Sequence record: OK254198.1
Length of the DNA stretch: 64,000 bases
Reading direction: 5' to 3' (one strand)
From: Escherichia phage PSD2001
Of this stretch, positions 3,441 to 20,602 are shown one piece after another. Under the pieces are notes generated by a model that was not told where the DNA came from, did no database searches, and worked only from the letters and a program-made list of their open reading frames with translations. How positions within the stretch are numbered: position 1 is the first letter of the stretch; each line of letters begins with the position of its first letter. A program made the position numbers and the translations under genes.

Positions 3441-3824
3441 TTACTCTAATGTTAACAGATACTTAGTCTGAAAGAAAACTCCAACGATATCGTCCAGAGT
3501 CGATTGAATAGCCTTGGGTACAACTTTATAGACTCTTTCCGAGCTTTTAATCATTTCATCTAAAAACAAAATTGTATCTTTCGGCAAGTCCGAGGCGGAC
3601 GGTAATGCAGCTTTGTATTGTTTCCCGCTGTAACCTAACCATTGCTCACTGAACTGGTCGAGTGGACCTTGGATTTCTGTGAAGTAGAAATCATAAGCTT
3701 TATGGCGGGCGTAACTTTTGGTTTCAAGATGGGCGGACTTAAAATAAGCCAAAGAGACTAACAACCACCCAATATATGAATCCACCTCAGACCCACGACC
3801 CGTTACGAAATCATCAAATTTCAT
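3441..3824 (-). CDS. Hypothetical protein (position of T4 rI.-1)
   Basis: 127 aa ORF directly downstream of rI-like gene. Confidence 0.55.
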   Translation of the reverse strand: MKFDDFVTGRGSEVDSYIGWLLVSLAYFKSAHLETKSYARHKAYDFYFTEIQGPLDQFSEQWLGYSGKQYKAALPSASDLPKDTILFLDEMIKSSERVYKVVPKAIQSTLDDIVGVFFQTKYLLTLE

Positions 3825-4107
3825 CTTCCAATTTTACCTTCATTAATTTAGCGTACTCGACTGCAGCAGCCCGGCCATCAATTTGACATGTGATTTCATT
3901 TACACATTGACTCTTATTGTTCCATTCAGTTTTAATAAAAGCCCAAAATTGTTCGGACTGCTCGACGCTGGGTTCTTTGAATTGCGAATAGATTTGCATC
4001 GCACTATCTGCATACTGGGTAAATTTACCATCTGTAGCAGAGGACATATTTGGGCCTAAACAGCCCATTAGTAATAGACTTAGAGAAAGTCCTCGAATAA
4101 GGTCCAT
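3814..4107 (-). CDS. rI: Lysis-inhibition regulator RI-like (antiholin), signal-anchored
   Basis: 97 aa from internal ATG with SD AAGGAG; hydrophobic N-term; C-terminal 'SVEQSEQFWAF...EYAKLMKVKLE' resembles T4 RI as recalled; sits next to tk as in T4. Confidence 0.7.
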   Translation of the reverse strand: MDLIRGLSLSLLLMGCLGPNMSSATDGKFTQYADSAMQIYSQFKEPSVEQSEQFWAFIKTEWNNKSQCVNEITCQIDGRAAAVEYAKLMKVKLEDEI

Positions 4108-4181
4108 AAAGGACTCCTTATTGTTGGTCATGATTACGCTTTGCAGCCTTAACATAGCGGAATACTAGTTAGTAACTGTAT

Positions 4182-4457
4182 TTATAATCTTTTAAATTTG
4201 AAACAATACATTGCAAATAAATCAGAAAAATGTCTATCAACCCATATTCTTTGCACTGGACTAGTAACAGTCAGCATATAATGTGATTTTTGTAAATTTA
4301 TTCCATTTTTATTTGGGCATTCTTTATTAACAGAATGATACGTGCTTGCTACTATTTCAATTTCCCTTTCATATCTCTCGCTATCTGTTTGTGTGGGGAT
4401 AAATGCAATCCCGGCAATAACAAAAATAGAGATATACGCCCAAATCTTATATATCAT
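4182..4457 (-). CDS. Hypothetical membrane-anchored protein
   Basis: 91 aa; N-terminal TM segment 'IWAYISIFVIAGIAFIP'. Confidence 0.5.
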   Translation of the reverse strand: MIYKIWAYISIFVIAGIAFIPTQTDSERYEREIEIVASTYHSVNKECPNKNGINLQKSHYMLTVTSPVQRIWVDRHFSDLFAMYCFKFKRL

Positions 4458-4464
4458 AAGGACC

Positions 4465-5037
4465 TCAGCTTGTCAATTCGAGCCAATGTTTCCTGCATAA
4501 AGATACGTACGATTCATTCCCACCGACCAATACTTGCTCGCCGTCCTTCACAGCAGCACCGTCGATTACTCGAGTGGTCATGGTTGCTTTCCGGCCGCAA
4601 TGACAGACGCCCTTTAATTCAACCAGTTTATCCGAAATAGCCAGAAGTCTGGCCGAACCGGGAAATAATTGACCCCGAAAATCTGTTCTTAACCCGTAAC
4701 ACATAACGGGGATATTGTAATTATCGACCACTTGAGCTAACTGGTCAATTTGCTCTGGTAACAAAAATTGAGCTTCATCGACCAGGACACAATGGATATC
4801 CTTTTGAGACTCGGCCCATTTATAGAATTCAAACAGGTTCATGTCGGCCGTTACCAGGTTTGCTTCCTGGCTAATACCGATGCGTGATTTAATTTCGCCT
4901 TCCGAGTCCCGATTATCAATAACAGGTTTTAGCAAAAGCACACTCATTCCACGCTCTTTATAGGAATAAGCTGCAGTCAGCAATGAAGCTGTTTTGCCTG
5001 CATTCATTGCTGCGTAATGATAAATTAAACTCGCCAT
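4465..5037 (-). CDS. tk: Thymidine kinase
   Basis: 190 aa; P-loop 'AAMNAGKTASLL', 'VLVDEAQF', C-terminal Cys cluster 'CHCGRKAT...SLCRKH' typical of type II thymidine kinases. Confidence 0.95.
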   Translation of the reverse strand: MASLIYHYAAMNAGKTASLLTAAYSYKERGMSVLLLKPVIDNRDSEGEIKSRIGISQEANLVTADMNLFEFYKWAESQKDIHCVLVDEAQFLLPEQIDQLAQVVDNYNIPVMCYGLRTDFRGQLFPGSARLLAISDKLVELKGVCHCGRKATMTTRVIDGAAVKDGEQVLVGGNESYVSLCRKHWLELTS

Positions 5038-5046
5038 ATCACCTTC

Positions 5047-10760: not shown

Positions 10761-11252
10761 TTATTTGTATGCGCTAAAAGTTCCGGTACGGAACGTTTCT
10801 ATAACTCGTTTGGCTCGGTTCGGAGTCTGGACTTTATACCATCTCGAGTCAGCCAGTTCCTTGGCGGCGGCTTCCCACGATTTGGCCTTCAACAATCGCA
10901 TACCCTTAGGAAAACCAGCAACACCAGCAACACCCATCTGGAATACCATATTAATGAGTGCACAACGACGAACTTCATCTAGCACATCATAAACAGGTTT
11001 TAAGACAGGGTGTCTCAAGATTCCGGCTTTAGCTTTTTCGACCGAACGGTTAAACAATGTTTCAGCTTCGTGCTGGGTTATGCGACCATTACAGACGCGA
11101 CCCATGAGCTTGTCGAGCTCGGCACGAGCAACATCTTTTGATGGGTTCTTAGTTATCAGTTGCCCGATACCAATGGTCCAATAGCCTTCAGTATCTTTAT
11201 ACAAATCCAACTTACAACCTTCATCTATACGTAACATTTCGAATATATTCAT
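10761..11252 (-). CDS. e: Endolysin (T4 lysozyme family)
   Basis: '[35 protein letters not shown]...' matches T4 lysozyme incl. catalytic E11/D20/T26 context. Confidence 0.97.
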
Positions 11253-11278: not shown

Positions 11279-11734
11279 TTATCCGAAAATTTGAGTCATT
11301 ACCTTGTACATCGATTTGCCCATCACATACTGCCATTGACTCGGTTTAATCAGAGCAAATGCATCGAACTCTGGAACTGTACTACCATCCGGAAAGGTAT
11401 GATAGGCAGAGCATTTACTATGTCTGAACTGCTCATGCTCGACCGGGACCGTGTACAAAAACAGGTGAAGGTTTTTATTATCTGAATAACGGAACTCACC
11501 CAGGTCTTTTAAGAATGCTGGGTCATATTGGGTAAATCCAGTTTCTTCTTCGGTTTCACGAATAGCAGCTTCAATCGGGGATTCACCAGCTTCAACGTGA
11601 CCCTTAGGGATGTCCCATTTGTGCGCAGGCGCACCTGGTTTACGAGAACCGGTCACACGACCCATGAATAACTCTTTATCTTCAGTCATGAAAATAATGC
11701 CAGCAGATAATTCCTTCACTTTCTTACTCATCAT
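11279..11734 (-). CDS. nudE: Nudix hydrolase
   Basis: Nudix box 'GHVEAGESPIEAAIRETEEETG'; adjacent to e as in T4. Confidence 0.85.
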   Translation of the reverse strand: MMSKKVKELSAGIIFMTEDKELFMGRVTGSRKPGAPAHKWDIPKGHVEAGESPIEAAIRETEEETGFTQYDPAFLKDLGEFRYSDNKNLHLFLYTVPVEHEQFRHSKCSAYHTFPDGSTVPEFDAFALIKPSQWQYVMGKSMYKVMTQIFG

Positions 11735-11960
11735 CGCGTTTCCATGATTGGTTAAAAATATCACTCATTAAAAATTCAAGTCTATTTTCCAATGAAGGAC
11801 TTTCACTATCGGATACTTGAATCATATAATCGGAAATAGGTCGGAACATATCCAAGTCGCTTTCCAAATCTTCTTTGATTTTCTCTTCTGATGTTCCGGT
11901 GTCATAGGAATACAGATAAGAATCACATGACTCGGATTTAATATAAATTGCAATACTCAT
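11724..11960 (-). CDS. Hypothetical acidic protein
   Basis: 78 aa ORF. Confidence 0.5.
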   Translation of the reverse strand: MSIAIYIKSESCDSYLYSYDTGTSEEKIKEDLESDLDMFRPISDYMIQVSDSESPSLENRLEFLMSDIFNQSWKRDDE

Positions 11961-12541
11961 TTACGGCATTCCTCAATAAAAGAATTTAATGTATTTTTCT
12001 TAGCGATATCGTCGTATACCTTTTTAACTTTAGAAATACGAAAAGGTACTTCAATAGCCATAGTCCATAAAAATGATGCAATAAGTCCAACAGCAGCAGA
12101 AGAAATGCACGCGCCCATTACAGCCACAGGTGCTTCATTTTTACCTGTCAAGAAAAACAACAGGATTGGTAAAAATAAGATTCCAGCCCACACATAAAAC
12201 CTGGAACAAATTAACTTATCAAATTCATCTTTCCAGGTACGAAATCCATATTTCTTGCTATAAGAAATTAATGGGTCGGGTGTCTGTTCTTTGAGTGGTT
12301 CCGGTTGATACCCATTAACAATATATCCCATTTTATATTCCTTAATTAAAAGCTCTTTCACATGACGATTGCATCGCGACCAATCAACGTTTTCCACCTT
12401 GATTCCTTCATCACCATCGTCAAGGTTCGCCCAATATTTTTTGGTAATCATAAATTCATCTCTTGATACAATTATACCTGCATTTTCTGCCCGACGGATG
12501 AAGTTTACATCAACACCCATACAACCAGGTTCATACAGCAT
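11957..12541 (-). CDS. Hypothetical membrane protein, C-terminal ...LNSFIEECRK tail family
   Basis: 194 aa; two C-proximal TM helices then basic tail shared with 15640..15993 and 15980..16339. Confidence 0.55.
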   Translation of the reverse strand: MLYEPGCMGVDVNFIRRAENAGIIVSRDEFMITKKYWANLDDGDEGIKVENVDWSRCNRHVKELLIKEYKMGYIVNGYQPEPLKEQTPDPLISYSKKYGFRTWKDEFDKLICSRFYVWAGILFLPILLFFLTGKNEAPVAVMGACISSAAVGLIASFLWTMAIEVPFRISKVKKVYDDIAKKNTLNSFIEECRK

Positions 12542-13227
12542 TACCAGCCCTCCATAGGAAATTCCAGATATACTTGAGCATTAACGCGGATTTCATTGGT
12601 GATTTTATTAACGCGGTCAGTTTTACGAGATACGCGACCAAACCAGCGCCAACCATTACCAACCGTTTTTGTTCCAGTATGCCAGGTCTGCCAGTTGAAT
12701 TCACACAACGTGCGGTCAGGAGCTTCTTGAACTAAAAGTTCACCCGCCTTGATTTTTTCCAGAACTTCCTGGTGCCACTGGCGATAGATAAGTTCGCCAT
12801 CAGGAATCTGACTGAATTCTGAAGTTCCCAGAGCAAAATGAGTAGGGCAAACAGAAGCGTTAACCAGACCCAGGATGTGTTCAGAATGGTAACGAGGGTT
12901 ATCATAATCAGGTTGTCCTGCTGTAATAAAATGTTGTCCTGCTGGAATATCTGGACGTGGTACATCATCATGGTGATACCCAGGGATAGCAGGATACCAA
13001 CCAGGCATCAACATATGGACGCGAGAGTCAAATACAACATCACGATTGGTCCAGTCCAGTGGTAATGCAGCAATAAAGCTACGGGTAATTAAACCGCCTT
13101 TATCCCAGGCAAAACTTAAATCACAATTAAAGAACATCGGTTCATTTTTGATTTCGTCATTACTGACATATTGAGCAAATTGACCAACTTCACGCATTTG
13201 ACTATTAAAAGTTTTTGAGCTATTCAT
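12541..13227 (-). CDS. Hypothetical protein, His/Trp-rich (GYHHDD motif)
   Basis: 228 aa from ATG with SD GAGGA; no confident family. Confidence 0.55.
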   Translation of the reverse strand: MNSSKTFNSQMREVGQFAQYVSNDEIKNEPMFFNCDLSFAWDKGGLITRSFIAALPLDWTNRDVVFDSRVHMLMPGWYPAIPGYHHDDVPRPDIPAGQHFITAGQPDYDNPRYHSEHILGLVNASVCPTHFALGTSEFSQIPDGELIYRQWHQEVLEKIKAGELLVQEAPDRTLCEFNWQTWHTGTKTVGNGWRWFGRVSRKTDRVNKITNEIRVNAQVYLEFPMEGW

Positions 13228-13237
13228 GATATTTTCC

Positions 13238-13474
13238 TCAGTATTCTTCATCATATTCAAAGTCTTCATCAAACTCGGGTTCCAGAGAAATTTCTTCTTC
13301 CGGGTGGAATTCACAAGGGAAGTATTCCACTTCACCACAATCGGCGTCATAGGACTGGAAATCAATTTGGATTACGGTTTCGGATACAACAATAACTTCA
13401 GCAACCAAGTCACCTGCAATTTCCATTCCAACTTTAACATCTTTAGCTTTGATAGTATTCATTTTATTCTCCAA
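13238..13474 (-). CDS. Hypothetical highly acidic small protein
   Basis: 78 aa; C-term 'EPEFDEDFEYDEEY'; PeSS promoter directly upstream. Confidence 0.55.
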   Translation of the reverse strand: MENKMNTIKAKDVKVGMEIAGDLVAEVIVVSETVIQIDFQSYDADCGEVEYFPCEFHPEEEISLEPEFDEDFEYDEEY

Positions 13475-13487
13475 TTTGGTAACTCAG

Positions 13488-13538
13488 TATGGAATCATTA
13501 TGCACTGACTCCATACTGATGTACACACTTATTTTGTG
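13488..13538 (-). promoter_or_regulatory. PeSS-like early promoter (-35 GTGTAC, -10 CATAAT, inverted repeat TCAGTATGGA/TCCATACTGA)
   Basis: Same architecture as copy at 21..68. Confidence 0.6.
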
Positions 13539-14488
13539 AAAGGACGAATTAAATGTTGGTTAGCCTTAAAGCGTTTAACATAGTCTTCGCGACCCAGGGT
13601 GTTGTACATATTAACCACTTCCTGGTAATGTTCCCAGGCATACTCGCGGAACCATCCAGAAGTAATGGAGGTACAGACTTTTTCCAGCGCAATATGGAAG
13701 CTCACAGATGGAGAGATATTGAACTCATTAGGAACCTGCGAACGCTCCAGAGCGAGCACACATGCTTCTTCATAAACCCCTGCCAGTTTAATAATCTCAG
13801 GGAGTGCTTCAAATTTTTCACGCGAGGTCATGACTTCTGAATCATCCTTCATATAAAACTTATATGCAGGCTTATCAGCAAGCGCCACAGCCTCGTGGAT
13901 GGAGTCATGGTCAAGGGTGTAGATTGTATCATTAAAGAAAGTTTTCTTGCCCACGTCTAGTTTAGGGTGACTGTATGACAGTGTTTCTGCCTGACGCTGC
14001 AGCATGATTTTCTGCAGTTCATCATTAAGAACAACACCCTTATTGCGAAGATAATTAATATGACTCATGGTCTTCAGGAAGAATGGGTTGTTCTTCAGGT
14101 AACGATGAGACAATTTAATCGCCAGACAAATATCAGGCGTCGCCCAATAGAAACCTGTAAGACGGTCTTTCTGAATATTTGCCTTCGCATATTTGAGCAG
14201 ACGATAACTTGAGGTGAAATCTTCGTCTTGAAGCTCACCAGTAATTTCTCGTACGTTGGTCAGGGCACGGACAATATAAGCTTCAAAATAGGTTTCTTTG
14301 CCATTGTACATACATTTAAAAGCTTGGACATCAGGGTTATCTACAGGAACATGAGCACCGAACATACGTGCTTTAAAGTGGTTCCAAGAACCCTGGTCAG
14401 CGATAAAGTCCCAATCAGAGTTTTCAATTTTCTGACTTTCAATCAGACCAGCGTTATGTAATGCACGAGAACCAATAACTAACATCAT
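13529..14488 (-). CDS. Hypothetical protein, possible nucleotidyltransferase-like N-terminus
   Basis: 319 aa; 'LVIGSRALHNAG...SDWDF' loosely resembles GS...DxD; weak. Confidence 0.55.
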   Translation of the reverse strand: MMLVIGSRALHNAGLIESQKIENSDWDFIADQGSWNHFKARMFGAHVPVDNPDVQAFKCMYNGKETYFEAYIVRALTNVREITGELQDEDFTSSYRLLKYAKANIQKDRLTGFYWATPDICLAIKLSHRYLKNNPFFLKTMSHINYLRNKGVVLNDELQKIMLQRQAETLSYSHPKLDVGKKTFFNDTIYTLDHDSIHEAVALADKPAYKFYMKDDSEVMTSREKFEALPEIIKLAGVYEEACVLALERSQVPNEFNISPSVSFHIALEKVCTSITSGWFREYAWEHYQEVVNMYNTLGREDYVKRFKANQHLIRPFTK

Positions 14489-14502
14489 AATATTTTCCTC
14501 AT

Positions 14503-14548
14503 TAGTTGACGGGATAATGATACTACGTTTCTTTAGACTTGTACACTA
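14503..14548 (-). promoter_or_regulatory. PeSS-like early promoter (-35 GTGTACA, -10 TATCAT, TATCCCGTCAAC arm)
   Basis: Minus-strand read upstream of 13529..14488. Confidence 0.5.
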
Positions 14549-14590
14549 AATTTCTGCACAAAGTCCTCCTATCACATCCTTGTGATAATT

Positions 14591-14824
14591 TTAGCAGCTA
14601 CTCGGATACCAGATTTTACCATCGGCACGAGCAACGAAGGTACGACCAGCTTCTTCACCATAACAAGAGCTGTTCAACCAGTCTTCAAGACGGACTTCGC
14701 CGTCATAATCATCAAGCTCAACACCAAAATCTTGAGCAGAAGCCATATCTTTTACTTTCTTATACAGTGCAGCCAGTTCAAGGGCAGCTTTTTCTAATTC
14801 AGCATGTTCAACAGCAGTAATCAT
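14591..14824 (-). CDS. Acidic small protein, W-x-SS-C tail paralog D
   Basis: 77 aa; '...EDWLNSSCYGEE...YPSSC'. Confidence 0.55.
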   Translation of the reverse strand: MITAVEHAELEKAALELAALYKKVKDMASAQDFGVELDDYDGEVRLEDWLNSSCYGEEAGRTFVARADGKIWYPSSC

Positions 14825-14833
14825 TTTATCACC

Positions 14834-15052
14834 TTAGCAAGACATAGAGGAGTTAAACCAGAAACCTTCACCTTCTGGAATACAATATTCATCACGAACC
14901 CATTCATAATCGTCATATTCCGGACTGGAAGCTGGAATATATTCTTCACCCCCGGCGTGAAAGTGTTCGCCGGTTTCATCCGCCGCAGTCAGACCTTCAC
15001 AGATTAGTGCACGGATTTGTTTTTCAATTTCTTTAACAGTTTTAGCAGTCAT
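14834..15052 (-). CDS. Acidic small protein, W-x-SS-C tail paralog C
   Basis: 72 aa; ends 'GFWFNSSMSC'. Confidence 0.55.
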   Translation of the reverse strand: MTAKTVKEIEKQIRALICEGLTAADETGEHFHAGGEEYIPASSPEYDDYEWVRDEYCIPEGEGFWFNSSMSC

Positions 15053-15061
15053 TTTATTTCC

Positions 15062-15343
15062 TTAGCATTCAGAAGAGGAAGACACCCAACCGCCTTTTTC
15101 CAGGCTGGTAGTGTAATCATGTTGGTTTACAATAGCGTACTGGGCTTCGCCGTATTCTTCCCAATGGGCAAGGTCAGCTTTCAGGGCGCCAGGAGAATAA
15201 TAGTCACCGCCCATACCGCGAGCAGGGTATATATTAAAATGAGTCTCATATTTGTCTGCAATTTCCTCGGCACGACGAATAGCTTTATGGATGTCATTTA
15301 CTGCGTTAGCCAGTTCTTTATTTTTACGGTAATCATTCATCAT
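15062..15343 (-). CDS. Acidic small protein, W-x-SS-C tail paralog B
   Basis: 93 aa; 'EEIADKYETHF...GGWVSSSSEC'. Confidence 0.55.
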   Translation of the reverse strand: MMNDYRKNKELANAVNDIHKAIRRAEEIADKYETHFNIYPARGMGGDYYSPGALKADLAHWEEYGEAQYAIVNQHDYTTSLEKGGWVSSSSEC

Positions 15344-15352
15344 AACGTTTCC

Positions 15353-15643
15353 TTAGCACATTGCCGAAGAGGAGACCCAAGCACCAACTGTAACGACACC
15401 GTTTTCAACTTCACCGCCGTTGTTTTCAATTTCATCTTTAAACCACTGGGAGCATTCATAACCGACAGGATAATATGTACGGCCTGAACCATAATCACCG
15501 GTACCAAATTGGATACCATATTCATCTGCGATTTCTTCACAGTGTTTTTCAATTTCAGAGGTCTTATTTAGAAGAGAATAGATAGCTTTTTCTGCAGATT
15601 TCTCATCATAATACTTGGGGATAGCAATTTCAATTTTATTCAT
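15353..15643 (-). CDS. Acidic small protein, W-x-SS-C tail paralog A
   Basis: 96 aa; 'EEIADEYGIQF...GAWVSSSAMC'. Confidence 0.55.
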   Translation of the reverse strand: MNKIEIAIPKYYDEKSAEKAIYSLLNKTSEIEKHCEEIADEYGIQFGTGDYGSGRTYYPVGYECSQWFKDEIENNGGEVENGVVTVGAWVSSSAMC

Positions 15644-19739: not shown

Positions 19740-19815
19740 TGGTACCTCTAGAAGGACTCGAACCCTCACCTTTAACCTTAGAACGATTATATGCTATCCG
19801 TTACACTATAGAGGC
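19740..19815 (-). tRNA. tRNA-Arg (anticodon TCT), CCA encoded
   Basis: Manual fold: acceptor GCCTCTA/TAGAGGT (one G-U), D-arm, anticodon stem TAATC/GGTTA with loop GTTCTAA, T-arm GAGGG-TTCGAGT-CCTTC, then ACCA. Confidence 0.8.
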
Positions 19816-20466
19816 AATTAAATTATTTACAATATCATCTTTATAAACTTCGGCATAATGCAGTTCATAAATTTTCCAACCTGCGGCTTTTATGATATCA
19901 TGTCTTTCTTTATAATATGGGGCCAAAATCTTTTGTTTTGGATTGGAATAATGTTGATTTCCATTAACTTCAATAATTATTTTCTTATCTATTAAAGCAA
20001 TATCACAAGAATATGCTCGGTTTTCAACTGCCTGATATTCTTCGACAAATATAATACCAGCTTCAAGCAGTTTGGTTTTTAAAAATTCACACGGCACCGA
20101 TTTAAATTTAGTATTCTTTTTCCAAGGGTGTTTATCGGGATTTTCTTTTAACCATTTCTTTCTTCCATCAGAAATTCGTTTTATAGATTCGGGAGAGTGT
20201 TCTCTGCCTAGCGAAGCGACTGATAATTTTTCTCGAGTTTCCGCAGAAACGACAAACGGGACACCTGTCTTTTTAGCTACTACAAATTGATTTAAATTCC
20301 CAGATTCTATACGAGCTTTATTCATCGCAGCAACTGCAGTTTTAGAACCCTCTTTATAGGAATCTAACTTAGGGTTAGATGGACACCATCTTGTATGATT
20401 AGCCATCCAGCCTTTAGGCTTGTTAGAAGTATCAAATTCTTTATTACAATGTTTGCAGATGCTCAT
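19801..20466 (-). CDS. Putative homing endonuclease: N-terminal Zn-finger, NUMOD3-like motif, C-terminal Vsr-like (PD-(D/E)xK, DUF559-type) nuclease
   Basis: 221 aa; 'CKHCNKEF...HTRWC'; 'SAETREKLSVASLGREHSPESIKRIS'; C-term 'IIEVNGNQHY...ERHDIIKAAGWKIYEL'; lies between two tRNAs. Confidence 0.6.
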   Translation of the reverse strand: MSICKHCNKEFDTSNKPKGWMANHTRWCPSNPKLDSYKEGSKTAVAAMNKARIESGNLNQFVVAKKTGVPFVVSAETREKLSVASLGREHSPESIKRISDGRKKWLKENPDKHPWKKNTKFKSVPCEFLKTKLLEAGIIFVEEYQAVENRAYSCDIALIDKKIIIEVNGNQHYSNPKQKILAPYYKERHDIIKAAGWKIYELHYAEVYKDDIVNNLIASIV

Positions 20467-20492
20467 CAAAAATCTCCTATTAAGTATAGGAG

Positions 20493-20500
20493 TATTTATA
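20493..20500 (-). promoter_or_regulatory. Late-promoter TATAAATA upstream of the tRNA-region nuclease gene, followed by an SD-sequestering hairpin
   Basis: Minus strand TATAAATA-CTCCTATACTTAATAGGAG-ATTTTTG-ATG; SD AGGAG is in the 3' arm. Confidence 0.5.
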
Positions 20501-20527
20501 ATTGGACAGAGCACCATTCTAAAAATA

Positions 20528-20602
20528 TGACCCAGACCAGATTTGAACTGGTAACCTTTCCCTTATGAGGGGACTGCTGCTAACCAATTGAGCTACAGGG
20601 CC
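20528..20602 (-). tRNA. tRNA with anticodon CAT (Met or Ile2)
   Basis: Manual fold: acceptor GGCCCTG, anticodon loop CTCATAA, perfect T-arm ACCAG-TTCAAAT-CTGGT; one acceptor mismatch and a 3-bp D-stem. Confidence 0.7.

Follow-up and report, generated by a model that had tools for sequence, protein, structure and literature searches.

A conserved family of small acidic, cysteine-tailed proteins associated with a predicted Pol-beta-type nucleotidyltransferase in T4-like and other phages

Introduction

What could be the role of four small, adjacent genes whose predicted products all end in nearly the same short tail, W-x-S-S followed closely by a terminal cysteine? This question is raised by positions 14591-15643 of a 64,000-nucleotide stretch of Escherichia phage PSD2001 (sequence record OK254198.1), the whole of which is referred to below as the window. 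The initial annotation had described there four adjacent acidic open reading frames (ORFs) of 72-96 amino acids (aa), belonging to a family that it did not recognise, and had ventured that they might be DNA mimics or sponge-type inhibitors of host defence. The analysis presented here makes it very probable that the four ORFs supply the small proteins of a conserved phage module, at the centre of which is a predicted nucleotidyltransferase (NTase) encoded by the adjacent 319-aa gene.

Results

The four ORFs

All four ORFs lie on the minus strand. Type A (15353-15643, 96 aa) ends in WVSSSAMC (codons 15356-15379) and matches the profile phrog_899 with an E-value of 3.7e-23. Type B (15062-15343, 93 aa) ends in WVSSSSEC (codons 15065-15088; phrog_899 E 1.1e-20), type D (14834-15052, 72 aa) in WFNSSMSC (codons 14837-14860; E 3.1e-10) and type E (14591-14824, 77 aa) in WYPSSC (14594-14611; E 1.4e-9), the last also carrying an internal WLNSSC at 14663-14680, followed by YGEE. 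The four genes, their sizes and their shared tails, including the divergent fourth one, are thus as initially described. The profile phrog_899, annotated as 'unknown function', is aligned with all four ORFs over its C-terminal part. In the window, 25 of the 1051 stop-to-stop ORFs of at least 30 aa end in Cys, and the motif ending is found in these four only. The spacers between the four ORFs are 9 nucleotides (nt) long, with a TAAGGA-type ribosome-binding site (RBS) that includes the TAA stop. The strong acidity noted earlier is borne out by net charges of -9, -5, -11 and -8 for types A, B, D and E, respectively, and by isoelectric points (pI) of 4.25-5.24.

Sequence and profile searches gave no match for the four ORFs in Pfam, NCBIfam or PDB, so that apart from phrog_899 the family is indeed one without a name, and no homologous T4 protein was found in a check against the complete T4 genome. 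The AlphaFold (AF2) model of type A has a mean predicted local distance difference test score (pLDDT) of 89.7 and consists of a helix at residues 14-42, in agreement with the helical N-terminus proposed initially, and a small beta sheet. The tail is the lowest-confidence part of this otherwise confident prediction, which is consistent with a flexible tail. No structural relative of the small proteins was found among PDB chains, Ocr, Arn and MenA1 included.

At E < 1e-3 the four paralogues do not detect one another by BLASTP, yet each type has orthologues in 24-45 other phage loci, including those of Aeromonas and Pseudomonas phages (45 other loci for type A, 42 for B, 24 for D and 32 for E). 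Type E forms a BLAST cluster of its own, whose 32 loci include Pseudomonas and Aeromonas phages. The paralogue types are therefore ancient, each conserved across genera, and not recent tandem duplicates, which takes away the idea of a recent tandem diversification put forward at first. A fifth type, C (65 aa, MSRELDCAIRTA...SWVSSSYEC), is present between B and D in VR26, VR20, VR7 and SP18 (for example at 3848-4045 of locus L001 and 3607-3804 of locus L002), without a counterpart in the window (15052-15062). In SP18, four extra unrelated small genes are located between the array and the NTase gene.

Linkage to the 319-aa gene

The 319-aa gene (13529-14488, minus strand) is separated from the array by 102 nt and codes for a protein with the Pfam domains DUF7277 and DUF7275. 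Its association with the cysteine-tailed (Cys-tail) family was analysed from both sides. Around the NTase genes of 80 viral loci (4 kilobases (kb) on each side, ORFs of 50-200 codons), the tail was found in 209 of the 1135 ORFs located upstream on the same strand (18%), in 2 of the 865 downstream ones (0.2%) and in none of the 2812 ORFs of the opposite strand; the motif was counted with a regular expression and a small hidden Markov model on stop-to-stop ORFs. Starting from the small proteins, the NTase gene was present downstream, on the same strand and within about 2 kb, in 39 of 40 viral loci, while the contig of the fortieth ends about 100 base pairs (bp) past the small genes. Since the loci of related phages are not independent, they were de-duplicated to 96 distinct NTase sequences, which mitigates this in part: 91 of these 96 loci have one (23 loci), two (28), three (14), four (9) or five (17) small genes, and the gap between small gene and NTase gene is frequently 4-9 nt. 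No neighbour family other than the Cys-tail family is conserved past a single lineage in the 96 loci.

The paired loci belong to T4-like phages, to phages of roughly 150 kb and to jumbo phages of 350-370 kb, the module being seen in T4-like coliphages of the therapeutic type, in RB69-like, Klebsiella, Enterobacter, Aeromonas and Acinetobacter phages, and in jumbo phages. A distant Cys-tail member on a 3.3-kb metagenome contig also has a DUF7277 + DUF7275 protein immediately downstream, and two more unrelated metagenome contigs likewise carry the small gene with a DUF7277/DUF7275 partner. As a whole, the synteny is near-obligate in both directions. Because it is kept across lineages that share no other neighbours, the small proteins are unlikely to be autonomous, and the 319-aa gene, its adjacency correctly seen by the initial annotation and treated there as a mere landmark, turns out to be the near-obligate partner of the family.

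Variations on this layout are few. In Xanthomonas phage X1 (locus L138, 2992-5282) the order is reversed, with the NTase gene first and four Cys-tail genes after it; some of the X1 tails are atypical (...SDWSASWC, ...SWNASNC). Only one clade, of three loci (L052, L064 and L088), has a long NTase and no small gene within 2.5 kb upstream. In L064 (3746-4711) the NTase is split into two ORFs of 69 and 252 codons, probably through a pseudogene or a sequencing error. NTase residues that might track the presence of the Cys-tail family were sought: the distant short forms differ at R129, R165, C272, S277, R281 and W285, but the same six are kept in the L052 clade, where the family is missing, and they were rejected as a clean discriminator. 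No fusion of the NTase with a small protein was found among 120 NTase homologues.

Concerning cellular genomes, a survey of 100,044 species of bacteria and archaea, each represented by one genome, yielded the NTase on four contigs of metagenome-assembled genomes only, three of which have tail genes. These four contigs are probably mis-binned phage, and from its distribution the module is effectively virus-only. The complete T4 genome has neither the small family nor the NTase, which probably explains why the module escaped study.

The Cys-tail family and the level of its conservation

Members of the family were defined by a C-terminal W-x-S-S-(x)0-3-C at the stop, with a Gly before it, and by a DUF7277/DUF7275 NTase gene on their own strand at no more than about 3.5 kb; all four ORFs have this ending, and their array is 102 nt from such a gene. 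A profile search of 1.84 billion representative proteins gave at least 151 clusters (50% identity; E ≤ 1e-3), the members of which are nearly all 70-120 aa long, with a profile match that reaches the last residue. For the 178 sequences collected the median pI is 4.46, and Cys is the exact C-terminal end in 165 of them. The N-terminal part is an amphipathic helix ending in A-[DE]-x-x-G-x-x-F, followed by a hairpin (YGMGGTYYP; GDYGSGRTYYP in the 96-aa protein) and by a variable acidic segment, in which many members have further copies of W-x-S-S(-x-C-Y-G); in some members the tail motif is present twice or three times, e.g. RWESSSEGWESSSEGWVSSSSQC. The terminal consensus is G-x-W-x-S-S-S-x-x-C, and among very divergent members W, S, S and C are the sole invariant residues. 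The distance from W to C is 7 in 129 of 174 members, 5 in 40 and 8 in five, the 40 members having the spacing W-x-x-S-S-C or W-x-S-S-x-C. In one metagenome protein of 153 aa (P0148), the Cys-tail part is preceded at its N-terminus, in the same frame, by a fragment of UvrB (E 2e-15, UvrB 376-439), most likely in a chimeric contig.

Would the shared ending be a by-product of the DNA, stemming from a conserved RBS, from recombination or from a promoter element? The sequence TGC-TAA-GGA, common to the first three genes with the stop overlapping the RBS of the next, speaks for such an origin. The fourth gene, however, has neither a gene nor an RBS after its stop and retains the terminal Cys all the same. 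The tail codons also differ among the paralogues of the window, with GTC or GTG for Val and TCC, TCT, TCG, AGT or AGC for Ser. The 174 distinct family members use both Cys codons (TGC in 124, TGT in 50), all three stops (TAA in 146, TGA in 23, TAG in 5) and, for the tail Ser, all six codons of the AGY and TCN types, and the pentamers downstream are diverse. Moreover, no Rfam family matches the region. Given this codon diversity, the ending of type E and the absence of an Rfam match, the tail is conserved, as initially assumed, at the protein and not at the DNA level. An artefact of an RBS, a repeat or an RNA element was rejected on the codon diversity and the Rfam result, and its probability is practically negligible.

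The 319-aa nucleotidyltransferase

The AlphaFold model of the 319-aa protein has a pLDDT of 92.3, and its structural matches include ANT(2'')-Ia (8.8), TglT/MenT3 (8.7), MenT4 (7.9) and LnuA (7.3), as well as TM1012 and an NTase of H. pylori. The model indicates a Pol-beta fold with a C-terminal helical lobe, together with the motifs hG[GS], [DE]x[DE], a third acidic residue and K..R. On the minus strand these are IGS (residues 5-7; 14468-14476), DWD (D25-x-D27; 14408-14416), E69 (14282-14284) and KLSHR (K125-x-x-H128-R129; 14102-14116), to which HDSIH (H194-D195-x-x-H198; 13895-13909) is added in the helical lobe. In 112 homologues, G6-S7, D25-x-D27 and K125/H128 are invariant or nearly so, and the helical-lobe residues H194-D195-x-x-H198, E240-E241 and E248-R249 are likewise conserved; with E69 as the third acidic residue, the catalytic triad is intact at the sequence level. 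From the predicted structure, the protein is assigned to the MenT/AbiEii/ANT(2'')/Lnu structural class of Pol-beta-type NTases. Its close structural relatives move a nucleotide onto a hydroxyl, either the tRNA 3'-OH or that of an antibiotic.

The protein has no AbiEii/DUF1814 match in Pfam, only DUF7277 and DUF7275, and no sequence match in PDB, profile search included. Its homologues form more than 2000 protein clusters and are present in 731 of 50,697 phage records. Within a known class of folds, the enzyme forms a new branch that is specific to viruses. Assignment to RlaP (of the T4 nrdC.11 type) was rejected, there being no PF10127 match. A separate RlaP-family Pol-beta NTase, homologous to T4 nrdC.11, is encoded at 109-1119 of the window (minus strand) and has no BLASTP similarity to the 319-aa NTase.

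A second small family and the tRNA context

Beside shorter NTase homologues (250-275 aa), one to four tandem paralogues of a second small acidic family were found (about 100-140 aa, median pI 4.4, 98 clusters), with the motif GGEGxG...SYYSYxG...EV.P..KTITVY and without any Pfam match. The Ser of YYSYxG, flanked by aromatic residues, is invariant in 98 of the 98 clusters and is the only invariant polar residue. Homology to the Cys-tail family was rejected (hhalign probability 0.7%), and the second family is not found where the Cys-tail family occurs. Its hosts are the actinophages Atuin, ClubL and NiceHouse, a prophage of M. abscessus, the KVP40-like phage phi-pp2, roseophage DSS3_VP1 and several metagenome contigs; the arrays are located at 3621-5043 of locus L136 (Arthrobacter phage Atuin, gp148-151), 3600-4797 of L137, 2306-2602 of L139, 3777-4869 of L140, 3599-4638 of L141 and 3971-4366 of L142, and also in L143-L146. 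With two unrelated small families beside one type of NTase, the general architecture is therefore that of one NTase and a tandem array of small acidic paralogues.

In L136, L137, L141, L145 and L146 the NTase module lies within tRNA gene arrays, with up to 15 tRNA genes within 4 kb in the sampled loci. In Enterobacter phage CC31 (locus L032, 2615-3567), the position that the Cys-tail array has in relatives, immediately upstream of the NTase gene, is taken by seven tRNA genes. In DSS3_VP1 (L142, 19-1564), RNA ligase 2 and a metallophosphoesterase, which constitute an RNA-repair pair, are encoded 1-2.5 kb upstream of the NTase. The tRNA-array setting suggests a tRNA-related role for the enzyme.

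Genomic context in the window

The region is 92-97% identical to the genomes of VR7/VR26/SP18-like Gaprivervirus (T4-type coliphages), and the four-ORF array and the 319-aa gene are situated, on the minus strand, in the early e-gene cluster of the window. The e lysozyme gene (10761-11252), a Nudix/NudE homologue (11279-11764) and an e.2-like membrane protein gene (11957-12541) are followed by two unannotated genes and then by the 319-aa gene, while genes for e.3- and e.4-like membrane proteins are found beyond the array, at higher coordinates. In T4, e.2 directly abuts e.3, with no gene in between.

The 102-nt spacer between the array and the 319-aa gene (14489-14590, minus strand) contains an 8-bp hairpin (14569-14588) and, 3' of it and 5' of the 319-aa gene, the promoter-like element TGTACA-17-TATCAT (14545-14517). 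This arrangement looks in line with T4-type early promoter/stem-loop cassettes, and the PeSS promoter that had been placed upstream of the 319-aa gene is thereby recovered. The unusual TGTACA -35 hexamer with a 17-nt spacer is also present at 13497-13525 (minus strand), before the next gene downstream of the 319-aa gene. No late promoter (TATAAATA) was found between 4.2 and 20.5 kb of the window.

Directly downstream of the NTase gene, a very acidic, unannotated 78-aa ORF (13238-13474, minus strand; phrog_22890) ends in ...EPEFDEDFEYDEEY. An unannotated protein of 228-274 aa (12541-13365, minus strand; phrog_1843) is encoded there as well and is found again after the NTase gene in 22 loci, all of them T4-like. 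Also, the window has only two tRNA genes (Arg-TCT and Met-CAT), flanking a 238-aa ORF, at 19740-20602 on the minus strand. This ORF has RAP/DUF559-type endonuclease-like domains and is possibly a mobile endonuclease insert; in T4, segB is an endonuclease gene inserted among tRNA genes.

Discussion

What might the small proteins do for the NTase? An invariant and flexible tail, arrays of paralogues, acidity, the invariant Ser of the second family and relatives of the enzyme that act on hydroxyls have as their simplest common denominator a tail that is a ligand of the acceptor site of the NTase, and the version tentatively favoured here, at somewhat less than an even chance, is that a nucleotide is transferred onto a Ser of the tail. 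The acidic body of the small protein would dock on the NTase, and the flexible tail would then enter the acceptor pocket, where related enzymes accommodate a tRNA 3'-OH end or the hydroxyl of a drug. There, the tail Trp may stand in for a stacked base and the hydroxyl of the conserved Ser would be the acceptor of the nucleotide, a single NTase thus serving a set of tagged small proteins. The physical interaction, the docking of the tail in the site, the nucleotidylylation of Ser and any downstream role are steps that we infer. The Ser-acceptor version is preferred because it best accounts for the arrays, for the repeated motifs and for the invariant Ser in both families; a tail motif in several copies is better suited to a modification site than to a plug. 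Protein nucleotidylylation by enzymes of the NTase fold is established for MntA acting on HepT, and for GlnE and GlnD. A bolder form of the proposal, which seems rather doubtful, is a virus-specific tagging system, in which the MenT-like NTase would conjugate a nucleotide to the exposed tail of small acidic proteins that resemble the acceptor end of tRNA (or to the YYSYxG Ser in the second family) and the conjugates would work against host enzymes of the tRNA 3'-end, whether as decoys or as effectors. Were this to hold, Ser would for the first time be seen as the target of protein nucleotidylylation by a Pol-beta NTase, and phage counter-defence would gain a new class.

Several observations weigh against transfer onto Ser. 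To our knowledge, the protein-modifying Pol-beta NTases use Tyr, not Ser, as the acceptor. The NTase also occurs without a nearby Cys-tail family in the L052/L064/L088 clade, in CC31, in actinophages and in KVP40-like phages, so that the Cys-tail proteins cannot be its sole substrate. The tRNA arrays and the RNA ligase near the NTase point to tRNA as the primary substrate, a context into which a regulator or a mimic fits at least as well, and the closest structural relatives, MenT1, MenT3 and MenT4, are toxins under the control of small antitoxins encoded upstream. Lastly, a simple Ser-acceptor model leaves the strictly terminal Cys unaccounted for; a metal contact in the two-metal site, recognition of the carboxylate or a follow-up chemistry are possibilities.

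These points lead to the rival ranked near-equal to the Ser-acceptor reading, although taken by itself it is still unlikely: the small proteins would be antitoxin-like pseudo-substrates that mimic the acceptor end of tRNA and, without being modified, gate or block a MenT-like tRNA 3'-end NTase, as MenA1 does with MenT1. The toxin-like fold of the predicted NTase, with MenT1 as its top structural hit, the acidity of the small proteins (median pI 4.46) and the presence of the NTase inside tRNA arrays in five contexts, with the tRNA genes of CC31 replacing the array, are all in keeping with it. So are the gene order and tight spacing, which are like those of the 68-aa, long-helix antitoxin MenA1 encoded directly upstream of MenT1, the pairing of one NTase family with small partners of two unrelated kinds, a pattern known from toxins and their different antitoxin families, and the existence of the NTase without the Cys-tail family. 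This last observation counts on the other side too, since in some clades the NTase survives without the small family; moreover, up to five or six ancient, separately conserved paralogues per NTase are unlike any toxin-antitoxin pair, and the carriers are virulent phages. Conservation here sits in the tail, whereas the N-terminal helix of MenA1 alone suffices, and there is no sequence or structure similarity to MenA1 or to another PDB chain. The terminal Cys is explained by neither the acceptor nor the pseudo-substrate reading.

Further down the scale, and improbable, are targeting or specificity subunits, whose variable bodies would bind different targets (host nucleic-acid-binding proteins or particular tRNAs) while the common tail recruits or reprograms the NTase. 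The variable inserts that separate the YYP hairpin from the common tail, the several ancient paralogue types kept together and the arrays in two unrelated partner families would suit such a division of labour, but 23 of the 96 loci have a single copy, direct binding of tRNA is not to be expected of acidic proteins and no target is known. Less probable still is the role guessed initially, that of free-standing acidic DNA mimics or sponges directed against host defence, for which the NTase would be a meaningless neighbour. Strong acidity, small size and the early accessory-gene region of a T4-like phage are what this idea had in its favour; as a free-standing role it is contradicted by the synteny with the NTase in T4-like, about 150-kb and jumbo phages and in metagenome contigs without other common neighbours, it finds no structural match to Ocr, Arn or another PDB chain, and it does not account for the invariant terminal W-x-S-S...C. 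A mimic or sponge function may still come in as a later effect of the module. A further rival is that of precursors of the type of ribosomally synthesised and post-translationally modified peptides (RiPPs), where a tail Ser would be nucleotidylylated, eliminated to dehydroalanine and attacked by the Cys to give a lanthionine- or aminovinyl-cysteine (AviCys)-like ring. Such rings usually have i to i+3 spacing, which is that of the dominant S-x-x-C at the C-terminus, the Cys is strictly terminal, and one enzyme for many precursor paralogues is also the rule in prochlorosins. Yet this is the least probable of the four: with Pfam on the neighbours, no LanB/C/M, LanD, YcaO or radical-SAM gene was found conserved nearby in the 96 loci, 40 of 174 members have W-x-x-S-S-C or W-x-S-S-x-C, leading to other ring sizes, and the supposed 'leader' is a confidently folded domain in the type A model.

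How does the module compare with known systems? In the literature, no paper was found that names DUF7275, DUF7277, phrog_899, phrog_2141 or the locus names of RB69, phage 31 or VR7, and nothing relevant on a phage NTase with a C-terminal cysteine or AMPylation; from its sequences, the Cys-tail family appears to be one without known relatives. Ocr, Arn and the Tad/Acb-type sponges are also small, strongly acidic, early phage proteins, but no similarity to them was found in sequence or structure, and they need no enzyme partner and no conserved terminal motif. The prochlorosins and ProcM share with the module the layout of one enzyme gene and several small paralogues with a short conserved segment; here, in contrast, it is the C-terminal tail that is conserved, attached to a folded domain, and an NTase takes the place of the known RiPP enzymes, none of which is encoded nearby. 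As for the enzyme, ANT(2'')-Ia (AadB) and LnuA differ in having small-molecule substrates and no partner proteins, in being bacterial resistance genes, and in being much shorter, without the large conserved helical DUF7275 region. If transfer onto Ser holds, the module would resemble HepT-MntA (type VII) and GlnE/GlnD in placing a nucleoside monophosphate on a hydroxyl side chain of a small protein encoded in the neighbourhood; in those systems, however, the nucleotide goes to Tyr, and the protein that receives it, a HEPN RNase or a metabolic regulator, is a single substrate and not one of an array.

Through the module, an enzyme class known from bacterial toxins that poison tRNA and from abortive infection is connected with virulent phages, where two unrelated families furnish it with arrays of dedicated small proteins. 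Whether these are substrates, mimics or regulators, knowledge of their role would reveal a new level at which phages govern the nucleotidylation of tRNA or protein, and if the tail proves to be nucleotidylylated there is a real chance of a categorically new system. The closest comparison is with MenAT and AbiE, where the gene of a small long-helix protein, such as the antitoxin MenA1 encoded upstream of MenT1, immediately precedes that of the NTase on the same strand (PMC10435456, PMC11375011, PMC7450476), and where an NTase family likewise pairs with unrelated families of small partners. The phage NTase, however, falls outside the AbiEii/DUF1814 profile and matches only DUF7277/DUF7275, and the residue before D-x-D is not conserved in it, so that it has no conserved phospho-acceptor there. 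The phage module is virus-only and mostly carried by virulent phages, it has one to six ancient paralogues where MenAT has one antitoxin, and its small partner has the invariant C-terminal W-x-S-S..C tail that MenA1 lacks. The pairing thus resembles the layout of NTase toxin-antitoxin systems, and differs from it in its virulent hosts, in the multiplicity of its small proteins and in the tail that defines them.

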